Source of the DNA: a virus
Taxonomy: Duplodnaviria > Caudoviricetes
Virus record (IMG/VR): IMGVR_UViG_3300032257_000567
Coordinates: 1-43,144 of that record
Length of the DNA: 43,144 nt
Reading direction: 5' to 3' (one strand)
How positions within the stretch are numbered: the stretch's first letter is position 1; every line of letters begins with the position of its first letter. Under the pieces are notes generated by a model. That model searched no databases, had not been told where the DNA came from, and saw only the letters and a program-made list of their open reading frames with translations. Below are positions 370 through 42,374 of this stretch, one piece after another. Position numbers and translations under genes: made by a program.

Positions 370-382
370 TAGTGGTATTGAT

Positions 383-1579
383 TTAAATTGCTAAACTTAG
401 CCAATCCCCTCCACGTATATCATCATATTTTTTAGTCATTCTTTCATCTTTATGGCCCAATAATTCTTGGGTGTTGATTCCTTGTTTTTTGTATAGACGT
501 TCTGATAGTGATCGGATTTCGTGGAATGTGGGTGGTTCTTTTCCCATCCATTCTAGGTTGGTTTTGTTGCGACATCGGGTGAACATTCGTGAAATTGTGT
601 CTTTCCATACAGGATCACCTGGATTGCTGGTGGAGTAGTTGCGGGTGTGGTGGATGAGGTGTGGGGAGATTATGCCGGTTCGTTTGCATAAGCCTATTAC
701 GTCGCCCACTGATAGCCCTATGGCGTCCAGGGTGAGGTTGAGGGGGATTTTGATCATGGCTCCGGTTTTTTGCCGTGTGGCGTAATAATAATTATCTTCT
801 ATGAAAGAGTAGGGCATTAGTTGGCTATCACCTTCCAAATATTCTCGCCATTGTTTGTGCCAGTCTGCTTTTCGCTTGAATTGAGCCAATGCCAGGTCTT
901 CTCGTGCCTGTCCTGTGGTAATCGCTAGTAACATTACGTTTTCTTGCCATAAGTCTTTTGGTGAGGCGTGTGTACGTATTGTGTTGAATTCCTGAATGTT
1001 GGTTATTCTTGCGCGTTTTACTTTGGCTTTTGGGTTTCTGGTAGTTTCCCAGACGTTGGGATGATCGGGTGGTAGCGCTCCCTCTGATTTTGCGTCTTTC
1101 CATACGTCGATCATTGTTGATCGTATTACCTGCGCCATACGATGTTTGTTTTGTTCGGTGTAGGTTGTTAAACATGCATTTGCGTGTTTGACTGTAATTA
1201 AATCAAGTGGGAGATTTCCTAAATTTTCAACGACATTAATGAGTATATTTTTTTTGACTTTTAGTGTGTTGGATTTGAGTTCGCGTGATATGCATATTTC
1301 GTTATAGCGATCTGCAAATTTTTTAAGGTTTTCACATTTTGATTTCGGCGTGGTGTTGGTGGCGATGGCATGCACTCTTGCTTCGGCTACTTGTGCGTAA
1401 ATAATTGCGTTGAGCTGTTTTGCGCGGGACTTTGCTAGTTCTGCATTTGAACCCAGACCGTGAAATGTGCCCGTGCGAATGTCTTTGTATTGATAGTAGG
1501 TTTTGTTTGTGCGTTTATCCAGGCTTGAGTAGAGATTGTCGATAGCATCTTTTTTGTTGTTTCGTGGGCGTGGTGACAT
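383..1579 (-). CDS. int: Lambda-type tyrosine recombinase (integrase)
   Basis: N-terminal arm-binding-like region (NLY...YYQYKD..TG.FHGLG); catalytic motifs TGQAR, FHEIRSLSERLY, LLGHK..MT.KY. Confidence 0.95.
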   Translation of the reverse strand: MSPRPRNNKKDAIDNLYSSLDKRTNKTYYQYKDIRTGTFHGLGSNAELAKSRAKQLNAIIYAQVAEARVHAIATNTTPKSKCENLKKFADRYNEICISRELKSNTLKVKKNILINVVENLGNLPLDLITVKHANACLTTYTEQNKHRMAQVIRSTMIDVWKDAKSEGALPPDHPNVWETTRNPKAKVKRARITNIQEFNTIRTHASPKDLWQENVMLLAITTGQAREDLALAQFKRKADWHKQWREYLEGDSQLMPYSFIEDNYYYATRQKTGAMIKIPLNLTLDAIGLSVGDVIGLCKRTGIISPHLIHHTRNYSTSNPGDPVWKDTISRMFTRCRNKTNLEWMGKEPPTFHEIRSLSERLYKKQGINTQELLGHKDERMTKKYDDIRGGDWLSLAI

Positions 1580-1594
1580 GGCGGTTCTCTTTTT

Positions 1595-1822
1595 TTAAGC
1601 AGCTTTAACGCTTTGTAGTATTTTATTGACGATTGGGTCATCAATTTCTGTATCTGATTTCCGAAGTCCTATATATCTGGCTGTATCTTCGACCTGGTAT
1701 TCTCTGCCTACTTTAATTGGAGGCGGGTAGATTTGGCCGGTGCGTGCCCAGCTTCTTAACGTTCGCAGGCTGTGTGCCTTGCTGAATGTTTTTTTATCCC
1801 ATTCTTGTAGTGTGATAAGCAT
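1595..1822 (-). CDS. xis: Excisionase
   Basis: TLQEW...TLRSWARTGQIYPPPIKVGREYQV, lambda Xis-like; directly upstream of int. Confidence 0.9.
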   Translation of the reverse strand: MLITLQEWDKKTFSKAHSLRTLRSWARTGQIYPPPIKVGREYQVEDTARYIGLRKSDTEIDDPIVNKILQSVKAA

Positions 1823-1858
1823 ATTGATGCCTTCTTGGTTTTTGACGCCTATTTATAG

Positions 1859-2551
1859 TTAGATGCTTAATGATAAATTCTCTTCATTTTCGATTTGTCG
1901 ATCAAGCGATACGTTTTTCGCGTCATTTACGCCTTTCATAGTTGCTAATATTTCGTCTGGATTAGGTTTTCTAATATTAGGCTTTCTTGCATTTTTTAGA
2001 TTGTCAAAATGCGCGTCAACAAGCTCTCGCTTGAGTATTACTAGGCTTTTACCGTCAGAAAAATGTAAATCTACTTTTCTTTCGGAAACTATCAAAGCTA
2101 TTCGCCTTGAAATTTCTTTAGCAAAACCTAGTCGATAATAATTTTTATTCGATACACCTTTAATATCTGCTCGGTTAAGCAGCCTATCGCAAGTCTCAAT
2201 TAAATAGTCATGCGTGTATTTAGCAATTATCGCGTCAGACGTAAAACCCCTAAACTGGAAAGTGACTTCTTTATATGCGATTTTAACAACAGCTTGGGAG
2301 TCGTTTAGATGGGCAACGCTTGCCGCAATTGCTGATACCCACACTGGTTTTCGTGGCGGCTTAAACTTTCCATCAGAAGTACCAAATGAATCATTATCAT
2401 TAAACAGCAAATCTTCTTTGCCAATCTGGTATTTATCCATCATGGTTCTAGCGCGTTTAGCGGCAATCATTGCCTCGTTTGGGCTGGATGAATCACTAGC
2501 CATATCTAGTAAGTTTTTTATTCTTGAAAGTATTTTTTTATCTTTACTCAT
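1859..2551 (-). CDS. DUF2786 domain-containing protein (cassette 1 ORF)
   Basis: KILSRIKNLLDMA...SPNEAMIAAKRARTMMDKY N-terminus typical of DUF2786; stop codon lies within GTTAGATGC. Confidence 0.8.
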   Translation of the reverse strand: MSKDKKILSRIKNLLDMASDSSSPNEAMIAAKRARTMMDKYQIGKEDLLFNDNDSFGTSDGKFKPPRKPVWVSAIAASVAHLNDSQAVVKIAYKEVTFQFRGFTSDAIIAKYTHDYLIETCDRLLNRADIKGVSNKNYYRLGFAKEISRRIALIVSERKVDLHFSDGKSLVILKRELVDAHFDNLKNARKPNIRKPNPDEILATMKGVNDAKNVSLDRQIENEENLSLSI

Positions 2552-2578
2552 CCCGATTCCTTATTAAGTTAAACTCGC

Positions 2579-2663
2579 ATCTAACAAAAACATAGAACAG
2601 ACGCGGGTAAGCGTTGTTTGTTTTCTGTTGTTGTGGCGCGCTGTTCATGTAATGTCGTTATGT
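2579..2663 (+). other. attC-like recombination site 1
   Basis: R'' ATCTAAC, 5-nt spacer, L'' CATAGAAC, AG(A)CGCG, loop, CGCGCT, L' GTTCATG, 7-nt spacer, R' GTTATGT; two unpaired bases on the left arm. Confidence 0.8.
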
Positions 2664-3080
2664 GTTCGTCTGGGCTTGTTCAAATATCGAGTTAAAATCT
2701 GGCTTTATAAAGTGTGTCCAGTATTTTTCATCAAATACATTATCTAACGGTGATGCACAACAAACGCTTGGCGGTTCTTCAAAATTATTAAAATGAAAGA
2801 ATAAGCAGTCACCTATGTCTTCGTGCCAATCTTCTGTTTTTTGTAATTTAGGGTTTTTGCATTCATAGCTAGCGCCAGCTAAAAATGCTTCACGAATTCC
2901 CCAGCCAAACCAAGCGTAGGCGTCTTTGAAGTCACTTGTATCTAATACTGAATCAACATAATCATAAGCCGCGTTTACGTCGGGGTGTATAGGGTTGTCA
3001 CTATCGTGATCATTTCCACGCTTACTATGTTCTGGTGTTAAATCCTTTTGTGGGTATTCTTTTCCAGTTTTCTTAATCAT
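2658..3080 (-). CDS. Phage hypothetical protein (cassette 2 ORF)
   Basis: GGAG RBS before ATG at 3080 (the track start at 3113 lies inside attC2); WHED...EEPP...PLD...THF motif resembles small phage early proteins. Confidence 0.7.
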   Translation of the reverse strand: MIKKTGKEYPQKDLTPEHSKRGNDHDSDNPIHPDVNAAYDYVDSVLDTSDFKDAYAWFGWGIREAFLAGASYECKNPKLQKTEDWHEDIGDCLFFHFNNFEEPPSVCCASPLDNVFDEKYWTHFIKPDFNSIFEQAQTNT

Positions 3081-3098
3081 TTTGTTCTCCAATGTGCC

Positions 3099-3160
3099 AC
3101 ATAACCACAACATTAAACGCGATCTCCGCTAGCGCTGCGGCTTATGTATGGACGCTATAC
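3099..3160 (+). other. attC-like recombination site 2
   Basis: R'' ACATAAC, 5-nt spacer, L'' CATTAAAC, GC-rich centre, L' GCTTATG, 7-nt spacer, R' GCTATAC (GTT changed to GCT). Confidence 0.65.
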
Positions 3161-3493
3161 GTCTTCATTTAGTAACTTGATTGCATCATCAATCAGCTGT
3201 TTGTGTTCTTCTTTATCGAGTTTCGCAATGGCTAACCAAAGTAGCTTTTCCAGCTTATCAAATCTTTCAGGGTAGTTGCTTCCGAGGCCGCATTGTTTTG
3301 CCATGCTTTCGCCCCATTGCTCAATAATATTTGGTAGCTCAATTCCATAGTTATCTTTAACGTGTAGTTGTGCGATTCGGTGCAATTCCGATAGTGTGAG
3401 GTGATTTCTATCTGTGTATCCAGCATCAAATGCCCCAATCATTGTGCTAACAAGGTTATTAATAGCATCTGCTTTAATCTGGTTTTCTGTCAT
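3155..3493 (-). CDS. Phage hypothetical protein (cassette 3)
   Basis: GAGAGGA RBS before ATG at 3493 (MTENQIKADAIN...); an in-frame upstream start at 3607 with its own GAGGA is also possible. Confidence 0.65.
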   Translation of the reverse strand: MTENQIKADAINNLVSTMIGAFDAGYTDRNHLTLSELHRIAQLHVKDNYGIELPNIIEQWGESMAKQCGLGSNYPERFDKLEKLLWLAIAKLDKEEHKQLIDDAIKLLNEDV

Positions 3494-3635
3494 AGTGATT
3501 CCTCTCGTATAAGCTTGTACAGTTTTTCCATTATTGCTATTCACATAAGCCCATGCAGTTAATTTAGGTTTTGTTTTCTTGTGACTGCATTGCATTAAAT
3601 TTTTCATGGCTTTCCTCAATCTTTACGCCTAGTAG

Positions 3636-3775: not shown

Positions 3776-3919
3776 TCAGTCACTTTTACCGTTTAGCCAG
3801 TGAACTCGTTGAGATGCTTCCTCGGAGCTGTCATGATCACTTTCAGCAATAAACTTCCCGTCTGGATTGTAGAACCCAACAGTCCACAAATGTTTTTCTG
3901 ATTTTATATAAACATACAT
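3776..3919 (-). CDS. Small phage hypothetical protein, 47 aa (not in ORF track)
   Basis: Read by hand: MYVYIKSEKHLWTVGFYNPDGKFIAESDHDSSEEASQRVHWLNGKSD; strong AGGAG RBS; resembles a recurrent small phage protein. Confidence 0.7.
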   Translation of the reverse strand: MYVYIKSEKHLWTVGFYNPDGKFIAESDHDSSEEASQRVHWLNGKSD

Positions 3920-3936: not shown

Positions 3937-3988
3937 GTCTAACAATAAAATTAAGCAGGTAAATCTAAGCACCTGGGTAATCTTATTC
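3937..3988 (+). other. Degenerate attC-like site 3
   Basis: R'' GTCTAAC, 5-nt spacer, L'' AATTAAGC, then AGGT...ACCT stem; right arm eroded (CTTATTC in place of GTTRRRY). Confidence 0.45.
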
Positions 3989-4168: not shown

Positions 4169-4534
4169 TTAATTCCGGGTTTCCGCTATTTCTTCAAATG
4201 TTTTCTGATAAACAGACGTTATTGTGCAGCCTTGGATAGCTACATGACTTCCATTCACGCCAATGCCTGGGCCTCGATATTCTGCATCAGCGAAAATAAC
4301 TAAGTCTAGATTGTTTAAGTTGCCACCATGACAGTTAAACGTAACTGGTTCTGTAGTTACAACATCATGTGCTTTGCAATCAGAATTAAATTTATTGTAA
4401 TGATATAGGTCTTCTATTTCTTCACCGGATATATAGCCATCTTTATATCCTAAATCGTGTCCAGTTTTATTTCCTATAAAAAAACCAGAAATAAGAGATG
4501 AGCAAAAAACTATTATTATTGCTAGATATTTCAT
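4169..4534 (-). CDS. Hypothetical protein with N-terminal signal or TM segment
   Basis: MKYLAIIIVFCSSLISGFFIG hydrophobic N-terminus; ATGA overlap with the upstream gene. Confidence 0.65.
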   Translation of the reverse strand: MKYLAIIIVFCSSLISGFFIGNKTGHDLGYKDGYISGEEIEDLYHYNKFNSDCKAHDVVTTEPVTFNCHGGNLNNLDLVIFADAEYRGPGIGVNGSHVAIQGCTITSVYQKTFEEIAETRN

Positions 4535-5040
4535 ATGACATACCCAATACGGTCAATTTCCCTTGTGTTATTTGATTTATTTTTTTTAGGAAATTTTGGG
4601 TTATTTTCCATTTCTTTAAGTCGCTTTAATTTGAATTCTTCCATCGTCATTAGTATTTTTGCTGGGTTGCCTGCGCAAACAACATTAGATGGAATGTCTT
4701 TTGTTACTACGGAACCTGCGCCGATTATGGTGTTGTCTCCAATATGTACGTCGGGTAGGATTATTGCGGCAGCGCCAATATATACGTTGTTGCCAATGAT
4801 TGTTTTTGCTATTTTTGTTGCTTTGAGAGATTTAGCTGTACTCGCGTCATGAGAAAATATCATCGCTCTTGGTGCCAGTGTTACATCGTCGCCAATTTCA
4901 ATGTGACTGGTATGGCCTTGATCGATGAATACGCCTGGCATCATGGCGAAGTTTTTACCTACTTTTAGCCCTTTTTTCTTGAGCGCTTTTATTGGATTTC
5001 GGCGATATAAAATACGCTCATATGATTTTTTAATATTCAT
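4531..5040 (-). CDS. Hexapeptide-repeat (left-handed beta-helix) O-acetyltransferase
   Basis: IEIGDDVTLAP, IIGNNVYIGAAAIILPDVHIGDNTIIGAGSVVTKDIPSNVVCAGNPAK. Confidence 0.9.
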   Translation of the reverse strand: MNIKKSYERILYRRNPIKALKKKGLKVGKNFAMMPGVFIDQGHTSHIEIGDDVTLAPRAMIFSHDASTAKSLKATKIAKTIIGNNVYIGAAAIILPDVHIGDNTIIGAGSVVTKDIPSNVVCAGNPAKILMTMEEFKLKRLKEMENNPKFPKKNKSNNTREIDRIGYVI

Positions 5041-5147
5041 TTTTTTACCAGTTCAAATTGATAGTTTTGATAAACAAGTGAGAATCCGGCGTCGATTATT
5101 TTATTTAGGTCGACGATTTTTGTGTTTGGGTCGATTTTGATTGTCAT
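5037..5147 (-). CDS. Small hypothetical protein, 36 aa (not in track)
   Basis: MTIKIDPNTKIVDLNKIIDAGFSLVYQNYQFELVKK; GAGG RBS; ATGA overlap with the acetyltransferase. Confidence 0.45.
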   Translation of the reverse strand: MTIKIDPNTKIVDLNKIIDAGFSLVYQNYQFELVKK

Positions 5148-5148
5148 G

Positions 5149-5307
5149 TTATGCCTCGATAAATTTGTTGTTTTCTATTTCGATACTGATATTGATTTGA
5201 ATCGTTTTGTTGTGTGTTAATGGTATGCTCAAAATGTTGATTTCATTTCCGATGAACAACTGTGCGCATAGTTGCACAGTTGTCCATAGCGCTTTGATTT
5301 TTTGCAT
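5149..5307 (-). CDS. Small hypothetical protein, 52 aa (not in track)
   Basis: MQKIKALWTTVQLCAQLFIG...KFIEA; GGGGA RBS; fills the operon gap. Confidence 0.4.
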   Translation of the reverse strand: MQKIKALWTTVQLCAQLFIGNEINILSIPLTHNKTIQINISIEIENNKFIEA

Positions 5308-5366
5308 CTTAGTATCCCCGCATTCCGTTGCGTTGGCTTTTCGCCTATTATTTTTATGATTAATGT

Positions 5367-5401
5367 CGCAAATCCTAATGTGTCAGTTGTTAGGATTTGC
5401 G
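5367..5401. terminator. Perfect 12-bp inverted repeat (terminator or RNA-processing hairpin)
   Basis: CGCAAATCCTAA-11 nt-TTAGGATTTGCG just downstream of the DUF2303 gene; no clear U-tract. Confidence 0.4.
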
Positions 5402-5411
5402 TGTACATGGT

Positions 5412-6224
5412 TTAAAGTTTTGCTACTAAAAATAAGCCGGTGTTCATGGCTCCGCGGACATTTTCTATTATGTCGCTGACTGCTGCTTCGTGGGTTACAT
5501 GTGATTCGATGAGTTCGTACCACATTGTCAGTTGGCCTTCGCCAGTAATGCGGTAGCGAAATAGGGCGTCAAGTTTGTAGGCATCACCGTTTTGAAATAA
5601 GCGAACACCGATGGTGATTTGCTGCGGAATTTTTAGTTTTCCGCTTTGTCCTGCTTTACTTGAAATGGTTTCTTCGAAAACAAATTGTGTTTCGCCATTG
5701 TCGAGGCGGGTGCCAGATTTGAAATTCACTGTTTTGTTGCTTTCGAGGGTTTTTGTCATTTCGAGCATGTCAGCGCCGACTGGATCGATGATGGTTTTTT
5801 GGTTTTGTTCGATGAAGCGTGCGAAATTAACCTGACTCATTTCGCGTCCATCGTTTTCTTTCCAGTTTTTCCATTCTTCGGTCAAGGGGCAGTTGTATGT
5901 GGCTTTGTGGTCACGGTTATCGGCCTGGCCGCTGATTTTGTGGTAATCGATGGTGGCGAGAAATTTGGCTTTGTCGATGTCGCATTCGATTATTGAATCT
6001 TCGGTGGCAAATCGGTTGTAGTAGGCGATAAAACTTTCTACATCACCTAAAACTCGATTTGCTTCAATGCGTAATGGGCGTTCGAGCAGTTCTTTGTGTA
6101 GGTCGATTTTTAAATCTTTGTGATACATAAACGCAGGTATGCCGTTTATTTCGAGCTTTTCGAATTTGCTTGCTGCACCGGCTCTCATGCAGGTTTCTGC
6201 AATGTTTGGATTTTCCTGTTCCAT
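5412..6224 (-). CDS. DUF2303 (YfdQ-like) phage protein
   Basis: SFIAYYNR, TEEWKNW...MSQVNFARFIEQN, FKSGTRLDNGETQF, KIPQQITIGVRLF motifs. Confidence 0.85.
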   Translation of the reverse strand: MEQENPNIAETCMRAGAASKFEKLEINGIPAFMYHKDLKIDLHKELLERPLRIEANRVLGDVESFIAYYNRFATEDSIIECDIDKAKFLATIDYHKISGQADNRDHKATYNCPLTEEWKNWKENDGREMSQVNFARFIEQNQKTIIDPVGADMLEMTKTLESNKTVNFKSGTRLDNGETQFVFEETISSKAGQSGKLKIPQQITIGVRLFQNGDAYKLDALFRYRITGEGQLTMWYELIESHVTHEAAVSDIIENVRGAMNTGLFLVAKL

Positions 6225-6643: not shown

Positions 6644-6690
6644 AGAATAGTCCCAAAAAGCGTCTATGTCAACGCAAAATGCAACATTTC
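6644..6690 (-). promoter_or_regulatory. PL-like sigma70 promoter with operator
   Basis: Minus strand TTGACA (6672-6667), 17 nt, TATTCT (6649-6644), overlapped by TGTTGCATTTTGCGT, which matches the OR motif. Confidence 0.75.
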
Positions 6691-7278: not shown

Positions 7279-7923
7279 TTATTTTAATATTCGCCTATGC
7301 TCAATGACCGGACCAATGAGTTTACCTGACTTGTTATTGACGAAGTTAAATTCAGGGTAGTCACTATTGCTTGGAGATAATATGACTTGAATGTTGCCAT
7401 CTTCTTCATAGCCTTGTAATTTATATTTGGCTATAAGGTGCTGGTTTGGGTTGGTTAATTTTGCCAATATTGTGTCGCCTGGTTGAGATTCTAAGTCTGG
7501 GTCTATTATGACTATGTCTCCCTTAGTAATACTAGGTGCCATTATGTCGCTGGCAGCTATCAATGCAAATGTGTTGTTAGATACGTTTCGTTTTGCGGCT
7601 TCTTCCATGTATATATGTGCTGTTCCCGGTGCTGATTTTCCGATATTTGGTTCATTTAAAAGCGGGATTTCCGCTACTTTGTCGCCGTTTGAGGAAACTA
7701 AATGTGCTTCGTTAATTTTTGAAAAATATTCCGGGTTAATATCGGCGGGCGATAGCATGTGATTGATCGCGCCTAGTAAGTTGGGTATTTTTTCTAGTGG
7801 AATGCTTTCGCGGGCAAACCAGCTTCGGATGGTGCTTTCGCTTTCGTTCAATTTTGCGGCTAATTCCTTTGTCCCGCCACATATTTTCACGATTTGTTTA
7901 ATTTTTTCCCAATCTGGTTTCAT
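7279..7923 (-). CDS. cI: CI-like repressor (HTH plus S24-like C-terminal domain)
   Basis: HTH ELAAKLNESESTIRSW; C-terminal GDIVIIDP..PGD...LSPSNSDYP...LIGPVIEHR; divergent from cro. Confidence 0.85.
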   Translation of the reverse strand: MKPDWEKIKQIVKICGGTKELAAKLNESESTIRSWFARESIPLEKIPNLLGAINHMLSPADINPEYFSKINEAHLVSSNGDKVAEIPLLNEPNIGKSAPGTAHIYMEEAAKRNVSNNTFALIAASDIMAPSITKGDIVIIDPDLESQPGDTILAKLTNPNQHLIAKYKLQGYEEDGNIQVILSPSNSDYPEFNFVNNKSGKLIGPVIEHRRILK

Positions 7924-7935
7924 ATTTTTACCTTA

Positions 7936-7985
7936 ATGCGTTGACAATGTTGCATCATGCGTCTATTCTGTTGCATTATGAGCTG
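7936..7985 (+). promoter_or_regulatory. PR-like sigma70 promoter with tandem operators
   Basis: TTGACA (7941-7946), 17 nt, TATTCT (7964-7969); repeats TGTTGCATCATGCGT and TGTTGCATTATGAG. Confidence 0.75.
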
Positions 7986-41725: not shown

Positions 41726-41760
41726 GTAATACATGTTACATAAGCAATTTGGAGCCGCAC

Positions 41761-42045
41761 ATGGCAATTAAATACTACGATACTCCGTTTCATGTTAATC
41801 ATGATGCCGAAACAGCAATTAATATGGCTATGAAAGTAGATCTGTCTATTAAAATCGCAAAGCTAATTAAAGAGCGTGGTTTAACTCAAGCGGATGCTGC
41901 AGAAATGTTGGCTGTTCATCAATCAAGAATATCAGAGCTTGTTAATGCGAAAATTGAAAAATTTACGATTGACACAATGGTTGGTATGCTAGATAAGCTT
42001 GGGTTTCAGGCACAAATTGTCATATCAGAAAAGCAGGTGGCTTAA
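41761..42045 (+). CDS. XRE-family HTH protein (HigA-like antitoxin)
   Basis: GGAG RBS; GLTQADAAEMLAVHQSRISELVNAKIEKFTID.M..ML.KLG. Confidence 0.82.
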   Translation: MAIKYYDTPFHVNHDAETAINMAMKVDLSIKIAKLIKERGLTQADAAEMLAVHQSRISELVNAKIEKFTIDTMVGMLDKLGFQAQIVISEKQVA

Positions 42046-42374
42046 ACGCCTAGTTCTAACTTGAGCGCTTGGAGGCGCTTGCCGGCTAGTCTCATCGCTT
42101 TTACATCATTGCCGTTGGTTGTTTTTTCAAATGAATGCAGAACAAAAACAGTGTCTTGATACTTGGTTATATATAGACATCTAAACGCTGGGCTGCCATT
42201 AATGATAAGTTCAATAACACCTGGGCCAACGCTATTTAAGTGTTTGATCGGTAATTTAGGGTCTTGATCGAGCTGAATAAGCATTAGATTGAGGCCAAAA
42301 TCATCCTGAATCTCATCAGGAAACTCTTTATATTCACGCTCAGCGGCATCGCTGGCAAATGCGAAGTTTTTCAT
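42042..42374 (-). CDS. RelE/ParE-like (phage Gp49-type) toxin
   Basis: EFPDEIQDDFG..L..IQ, VGPGVIEL, FRC.Y, VFVLHSFEKTT. Confidence 0.82.
   Translation of the reverse strand: MKNFAFASDAAEREYKEFPDEIQDDFGLNLMLIQLDQDPKLPIKHLNSVGPGVIELIINGSPAFRCLYITKYQDTVFVLHSFEKTTNGNDVKAMRLAGKRLQALKLELGV

Follow-up and report, generated by a model that had tools for sequence, protein, structure and literature searches.

The cassette locus

The window, the whole 43,144-bp stretch of virus record analysed here, is classed as a provirus and is 76% complete. It is the genome of a lambdoid temperate phage, with a repressor (7279–7923) and cII-like, P-like loader and Q-like genes, and with morphogenesis genes for a lambda-type head and a contractile tail. 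The array described below occupies the distal end of the leftward early operon, from a hexapeptide acetyltransferase gene (4531–5040) to xis (Table 1), and annotated phages gave one 56-bp match. Transcription of the array presumably originates at the PL-like promoter, which is mirrored at 7941–7969 within a 37-nt inverted repeat around the repressor region; the hairpin of remnant 3, terminator-like when read on the − strand (3975–3956), would lie in the path of such a transcript. On the + strand between 1500 and 3800 there is no promoter-like match and no Pc, and the genes face the opposite way. GC skew is about zero or below between 2000 and 4000, the rest of the phage being G-rich on + in both gene directions, and this low skew would be in line with recent acquisition. 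Outside the array, convergent HTH and Gp49/DUF891 genes (41749–42374) form a probable toxin–antitoxin-like pair, and an Arc-like gene lies at the right end of the window.

Table 1. Features of the array and its surroundings in the window (↓, crossover point).
Feature	Position	Strand	Basis
Lambda-type phage integrase (context)	383–1579	−	Arm-DNA-bind_1 and Phage_integrase (Pfam)
Excisionase xis (context)	1595–1822	−	Pfam Exc, E 2e-18
Putative bare entry site: CTA 1849–1851, crossover G1858↓T1859, R' GTTAGAT	1849–1864	+	complements R'' 2579 exactly; without hairpin
Cassette 1, mobile unit TT...attC1...G, gene inverted	1859–2657	+	7/7 complementary ends; boundaries set by comparison with homologous cassettes
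DUF2786/DUF7168 protein, 230 aa, stop TAA in R', RBS AAGGA 2558–2562	1859–2551	−	Pfam, PHROG
attC site 1	2579–2663	top strand +	covariance model 31.8 bits on + only; constrained fold
Cassette 2, gene inverted	2658–3154	+	7/7 complementary ends; L001 DNA likeness starts at R'; L002 homolog
ORF2, 140-aa protein, stop TAA in R', RBS GGAG 3087–3090	2658–3080	−	three viral contigs hold relatives
attC site 2, degenerate, R' GCTATAC	3099–3160	top strand +	11/11 pairs on minus strand
Probable decayed third cassette, R''-like GTATAAGC at 3507–3514	3155–3514	−	sequence; inferred
47-aa ORF behind remnant 3, RBS GGAG	3776–3919	−	no family match
attC remnant 3: R'' GTCTAAC, 5-nt spacer, hairpin, no R'	3937–3985	+	sequence; below model detection
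PL-like promoter TTGACA-17-TATTCT	6644–6672	−	consensus match only; 13 matches vs 18.6 expected in shuffles

attC sites and the direction of the cassette genes

Site 1 has the attC consensus (R'' RYYYAAC, R' GTTRRRY, paired L boxes). Its left arm consists of R'' ATCTAAC (2579–2585), a 5-nt spacer and L'' CATAGAAC (2591–2598), its right arm of L' GTTCATG (2643–2649), a 7-nt spacer and R' GTTATGT (2657–2663); the R/L positions pair 11/11, and A2594 (inside L'') and A2601 are unpaired. The unpaired bases and the spacers of 5 and 7 mark + as the attC top strand. A heuristic attC score leaves the polarity undecided (31 on +, 29 on −). A covariance model trained on 56 bacterial attC sites (two misaligned rows retained) found site 1 as the sole match in the window at E ≤ 5, on + only, with E 1.5e-4. 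The canonical reading of the array, with the minus strand as the top strand, was considered and is ruled out by the covariance model together with the positions of the unpaired bases. A repeat finder and a loose attC scan were also tried and proved unspecific, the latter giving 24 matches in the window.

All ORFs of the array lie on the attC bottom strand (−), where a canonical cassette has its ORF on the top strand, upstream of attC. The preliminary description had claimed this opposition of genes and attC polarity, together with stop codons inside R' and a ribosome-binding site (RBS) after each R'', and had likened the cargo to ordinary phage early genes; the layout is borne out, and the cargo is of phage type. 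The stops at 1859–1861 (TAA), 2658–2660 (TAA) and 3155–3157 (TAG) lie inside R' boxes and simply mirror the usual stop in R''; AAGGA, GGAG and GGAG stand on the − strand between the R'' boxes at 2579, 3099 and 3937 and the start codons. The DUF2786 protein falls in phrog_421 (E 4.6e-34), and ORF2 matches phrog_34095 weakly. The viral contigs searched hold no relatives of the DUF2786 protein or of cassette 1, and none of ORF3, the ORF of the probable third cassette, which has 112 aa (3155–3493) or, from an in-frame start at 3607, 150 aa. A further 34-aa ORF (2544–2648, −) starts in L' of site 1, 12 nt past the ORF2 stop, and its end overlaps the DUF2786 start codon; translational coupling through the hairpin is possible.

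The minimum-energy fold of site 1 within the array is not the attC fold (z −1.8 and −1.5), and a competing hairpin occurs; the constrained attC fold, whose probability in the array is 0.083, dominates at the junction of the excised circle (0.73). In the array form the bottom strand folds with higher probability than the top strand at both sites (site 1, 0.083 vs 0.029; site 2, 2e-5 vs 2e-6), while the skews of site 1 (GC +0.26, AT −0.20) run against a purine-rich bottom strand. An Rfam search returned no match. Site 2 has the layout of site 1, and its pairs reach 9/11 on the plus strand, against the full set on the minus strand; with its R' GCT it requires two G–T pairs. Its attC fold has a probability of 2e-5 in the array and 0.013 in the circle, and it is probably a poor recombination substrate in place. 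It went undetected in the covariance model scan of the window, and its heuristic score of 21 is at chance level (14 matches of at least 20 in 15 shuffled 6-kb stretches). The surroundings speak for site 2: the R'' at 3099 complements the R' at 2657 exactly, as the R'' at 2579 does the lone R' at 1858. The two complements occur 8 and 11 times among 200 surveyed R'' boxes, jointly about 0.002, and random R'/R'' pairs drawn from the survey agree 7/7 in 6.9% of draws. Set against the definition of a CALIN (at least two same-strand attC within 4 kb, no intI), the window holds two sites by anatomy and one by the covariance model. Cassette 1 with site 1 would be the newest, still foldable unit, with sites 2 and 3 decaying.

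The same locus in related phages

The viral contig L334 encodes an Int 76% identical to that of the window and shares window 377–1825 and 4538–6173, with no gene between them in common. It has five attC sites, all of inverted polarity as in the window (model scores 14.7–34.2 bits). The two phages keep both flanks and hold different inverted cassettes, which marks the locus as a place where cassettes are swapped. L001 and L002, too, have ORF2 homologs next to inverted sites: in L001 the DNA match starts exactly at R', and in L002, whose array has nine left arms of inverted polarity, both R boxes are identical. Collapsed attC sites are present in all three relatives.

Several details of these loci deserve mention. 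The stop codon of the acetyltransferase gene lies within a G↓TTAAC box in L334 (1618–1646) and L001 (about 2240–2260); in L334 a collapsed attC precedes this box on the top strand, and the box marks the far end of the array. The ORF2 homolog at L001:2662–3429 has lost its attC and forms an in-frame fusion with an upstream gene, which in L334 is a separate gene. A 98%-identical tandem copy of a cassette at L002:4747–5401, its ends palindromic, is set among three different attC centres. This duplicate is an exception that a single crossover in R' leaves unexplained; it hints at exchange in R'' or at circles of attC that carry no gene.

Crossover position and recombining strand

A cut at G↓TT in R' makes the hairpin move on the start side of an inverted gene, whereas a cut at AA↓C in R'' makes it move on the stop side. 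In L006, L028, L105, L117 and L119, contigs picked because they have it, one cassette family bears its hairpin on the start side, and a bare G↓TT is all that stands at the stop-side end in three of the four copies where that end is visible; L076 has lost the hairpin. The likeness of L015 and L076 begins at R', with 95% identical cassettes in different contexts, and tandem duplicate cassettes are 98% identical. Array ends were counted in 53 viral loci, after leaving out 4 duplicates and 7 canonical or IntI loci, with 6 edge loci on each side. A bare exact partner stands at 28 of 47 5' ends and at 10 of 47 3' ends (p = 3e-4), several of the latter being missed left arms. Homologous cassettes and array ends together place the crossover at G↓TT in R' (by comparison, G2657↓T2658 in site 1), and the recombining strand is most likely the mRNA-like one. 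The chemistry would then be standard bottom-strand recombination, with that strand as the coding strand, as the preliminary description had supposed.

Six phage attC sites were assayed with IntI1, and five recombined, bottom strand above top (PMC9892861). Among them are attC1 and attC2 of PH101, whose annotated genes, re-read here, lie on the bottom strand, in favour of recombination by the mRNA-like strand; two PH101 cassettes also contain convergent plus-strand ORFs of 50 and 82 aa. P12002L attC2, which recombined, is canonical relative to its genes on our re-reading, and attC1, the single failure of the six (PMC9892861), is inverted, which counts against our reading. The ctTUS972 array, which is not among the sites assayed there, is inverted. 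In PH101 (L344:31120–33190) two cassettes have near-identical non-coding ends, and a fourth attC at about 32509 was missed by the covariance model.

The proposed mobile unit would run from the G↓TT of one R' to the G↓TT of the next. Each attC would move with the start-codon side of its gene, the folded and cut strand would be the mRNA-like one, and every cassette would carry its own RBS and be read within the phage early transcript.

A putative simple entry site

The 28 bare 5' ends share a short motif whose offsets were picked after viewing the data, and two of these ends resemble missed right arms. With that limit, TA stands at −10/−9 in 19 of the 28 against 9.8% of 1081 control GTT sites, and CTA in 11 of the 28 against 1.6% of controls and none of 176 attC right arms. 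The window site has CTA at −9. TA at −10 is also found in L014, a true integron within a viral contig, and in the Shewanella attI printed in PMC9892861. We read the bare 5' ends, including 1849–1864, as probable attI-like simple sites. Cassettes would enter the window array there, beside xis and at the end far from the promoter, an arrangement opposite to that of bacterial integrons.

Gene direction in viral and bacterial arrays

The tabulation of ORF direction against attC polarity that the preliminary description called for was carried out on loci selected by two left-arm patterns, which are not an unbiased genome sample. The first pattern supplied 128 of about 520 viral and 142 of about 10,000 bacterial loci. 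Of the viral loci, 71 went through the covariance model, after exclusion of 48 with short flanks and 9 that were duplicates or coding repeats; of the bacterial ones 75 did, after loci with short flanks and 4 that overlapped had been set aside. Before counting, echoes on the reverse strand, duplicates by overlap and two partial matches were removed. The model was trained on sites from the surveyed bacterial loci, which influences detection and not the call of gene direction.

Direction is non-random, with an excess of inverted genes in viral loci and of canonical genes in bacterial ones. Among the loci listed, inverted, canonical and unclear cassettes number 32, 11 and 32 in viral (n = 75) and 4, 61 and 27 in bacterial loci (n = 92; p = 7e-14). 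The second pattern, modelled on site 1 and covering all 61 of its viral loci, gave 14, 9 and 14 (n = 37). Counted by contig, again among the loci listed, 18 viral contigs are inverted only, 5 canonical only, 6 mixed and 9 without a call (n = 38), and the corresponding bacterial figures are 0, 14, 4 and 8 (n = 26); the contrast of 18/5 with 0/14 gives p = 2.4e-6. Polarity tends to be uniform within one array. Viral cassettes are also shorter among the loci listed (median 269 bp vs 497 bp), and viral inverted cassettes bear attC sequences nearly identical to bacterial ones.

Viral arrays of canonical polarity exist as well: L274, L286 and L306 hold phage-like genes, as does the phage array of TJE1 (L342:1–1520). 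Inversion in phage arrays is the majority, not the rule. The idea of a distinct, phage-adapted cassette class is supported with a qualification: inverted cassettes are enriched in phages, but 5 of the 38 viral contigs and TJE1 are canonical. A literature search, in which most subscription papers were beyond reach, found no published report of systematic gene inversion in phage cassettes, and the inverted layout is apparently an undescribed, phage-enriched variant of integron cassette arrays, of which the window array is a real, small and partly decayed example.

The recombinase

The Int of the window, its only PF00589 match, has no match in NCBIfam, including TIGR02249, at E ≤ 0.001 and is not an integron integrase. 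Searched by tblastn with an IntI query, the window gave no remnant of such a gene, and no intI lies beside the array. Of the 15 inverted-array records, PF00589 was matched in 5 and absent from 10; the matches of G006, G011, G014 and G017 are placed at Pfam level. Three inverted-array phages without PF00589 are 100, 96 and 100% complete (G005, G016 and G019). Since the window has no IntI and these three near-complete phages have no tyrosine recombinase, a host integrase probably acts in trans, and host IntI is the simplest reading. Beside the L015 array, a 179-aa ORF with a tyrosine-recombinase catalytic domain (L337:872–1411) converges on the inverted array.

Interpretation and alternatives

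We consider it likely that the locus is an integron-type cassette array in a lambdoid early-left operon, with its genes on the attC bottom strand and its cassettes shuffled by host IntI in trans. It is improbable, in our judgement, that a phage-encoded recombinase, either the lambda-type Int beside the array or an Xer-like enzyme, makes this a self-contained phage system. Arrays lie directly upstream of xis–int in the window, L334, L001, L002 and L060, as such a system would have it, but the window Int carries an arm-binding domain and lacks a TIGR02249 match, two thirds of the inverted-array records have no PF00589 domain at all, three of them essentially complete, and the unpaired bases of the sites are of the IntI type. 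We give very little credence to the proposal that the hairpins are RNA-level elements (terminators, processing or translation control signals) that merely resemble attC. The remnant at 3937 does look like a terminator on the mRNA strand, and hairpins stand immediately upstream of ribosome-binding sites; against this, complementarity of boxes 440–720 bp apart is useful only to an excised circle, homology breaks at G↓TT, folding energies are unremarkable and Rfam is silent, and a model of bacterial attC recognises site 1. The array might also be a dead relic, made by an integrase and now fixed, with slippage and homologous exchange as its sole sources of change. Decay has reached sites 2 and 3, sites have collapsed in the three relatives, and no joint was seen in the one DNA contig examined, possibly the source of the window, which is uninformative on excision. 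Site 1, however, retains all its R/L pairs, its fold probability is within the range of chromosomal integron sites (PMC5371416), and near-identical cassettes stand in different contexts (L015/L076 and the tandem duplicates); we rate the relic as improbable too.

The cause of the inversion is a separate question. GC skew in the window and its two relatives suggests that the attC bottom strand is the leading-strand template; a replication-strand cause was nevertheless set aside as a general one, since the skew corrected for gene direction, taken over 18 inverted-array genomes of which many are partial, had a positive sign in 8 and a negative one in 7 and lay near zero in 3. Another origin, which we think unlikely, is that ordinary bacterial cassettes had their gene segment flipped between R' and R'' boxes when top strand recombined with bottom strand, so that there is no separate pool. 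The 7-bp inverted repeats that bound each gene, the low-frequency top-strand recombination of some attC sites (PMC5027507), the L002 duplicate that moved without a fixed attC centre and the occurrence of both polarities in phages would all suit a flip. On the other side, in a small sample of 145 cassette proteins none of the inverted ones had a canonical match at E ≤ 1e-3, viral cassettes are the shorter, and the seven distant relatives of the DUF2786 protein that turned up among 400 genomes from a single bacterial class have no attC nearby. Nor can a flip between R boxes yield the start codons that lie inside long viral attC sites: an RBS and ATG are found within the hairpin in 9 of 22 such sites against 1 of 61 bacterial ones. 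The hairpin-internal ATG on the bottom strand reads through the arm into the gene, the arm becoming an N-terminal peptide. In four long sites the RBS and ATG are in the loop (L334:4038–4166, 4565–4690 and 5045–5174; L001:3424–3553).

These start codons fit cassettes that may have formed around phage genes. The preliminary description suggested that the array may bear on how cassettes are created; this is still a hypothesis, and the start codons in long viral attC point that way. Our best guess at a cause, put forward with considerable reserve, is that inversion keeps phage and host cassette pools apart: many host cassettes are anti-phage (10.1101/2024.07.02.601686), and an ordinary host cassette would land antisense and stay silent. 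The canonical phage arrays (L274, L286, L306 and TJE1) mean that isolation cannot be obligatory. Put together, phages may run a mirror-image integron, in which an attI-like entry site and attC cassettes built around opposite-strand phage genes are shuffled by host IntI, apart from the host anti-phage pool, and hairpin-trapped RBSs and start codons would be footprints of DNA-level cassette birth at the 5' ends of phage genes. This fuller picture we hold only tentatively, as somewhat more doubtful than not.

What the inverted layout implies

To our knowledge, the origin of integron cassettes is an open question in the field. The reverse-transcription model of cassette creation derives cassettes from first-strand cDNA. 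If the recombining strand is the sense strand, this argues against a first-strand cDNA origin of the inverted cassettes. If the mirror-image arrangement is true, the RBSs and start codons in viral attC hairpins allow a test of how integron cassettes arise. Placement of the gene on the attC top strand has been treated as a rule without which integrons would not function (PMC5027507). The large phage pool departs from this rule, most likely with bottom-strand chemistry kept, and indicates that gene direction is set by selection or by cassette making, not by the recombinase. This pool would offer a site-specific mechanism for rapid turnover of small genes in lambdoid early operons, and the inverted layout likely enables phages to swap their own genes with a host-borrowed enzyme. 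Phages may thereby use the SOS-induced host enzyme that also shuffles anti-phage cassettes (10.1101/2024.07.02.601686).

Comparison with known systems

Among known systems, the phage-borne CALINs of Qi et al. (2023; PMC9892861) are similar in being attC clusters without intI and with small cargo genes; gene direction relative to attC, an attI-like entry site and an excess of inversion are absent from the accessible text of that paper. SALINs and attG insertion (10.1101/2022.09.11.507474) are alike in relying on IntI supplied in trans, which places cassettes at short GWT sites elsewhere than in integrons; such secondary-site insertion can seed small CALINs. attG insertion as described there uses GWT only and has no strand bias, whereas the phage entry sites have the extra TA at −10/−9, and it would leave the direction of a gene with respect to its attC unchanged, unlike what is found in the phage cassettes. 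The integrons of Treponema and others with an inverted integrase (PMC4889954) likewise depart in orientation from the standard integron, but there it is intI that runs against the array, while the phage lacks intI and has its cassette genes reversed with respect to attC.

Classical cassettes and their attC sites (PMC2727003, PMC5027507) share with the phage array the R''–5 nt–L'' (unpaired base)–VTS–L'–spacer–R' anatomy, the G↓TT crossover in R' and complementary cassette ends. In the phage array, by contrast, the bottom strand carries the gene, attC adjoins the start of the gene and the stop lies in R', and the first unpaired base is T on the phage bottom strand against the usual G. Relative to classical integrons, its entry site is promoter-distal and it has neither intI nor Pc. 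The window array would work like a CALIN served by IntI, departing from the classical integron in gene orientation and in lacking an intI of its own.
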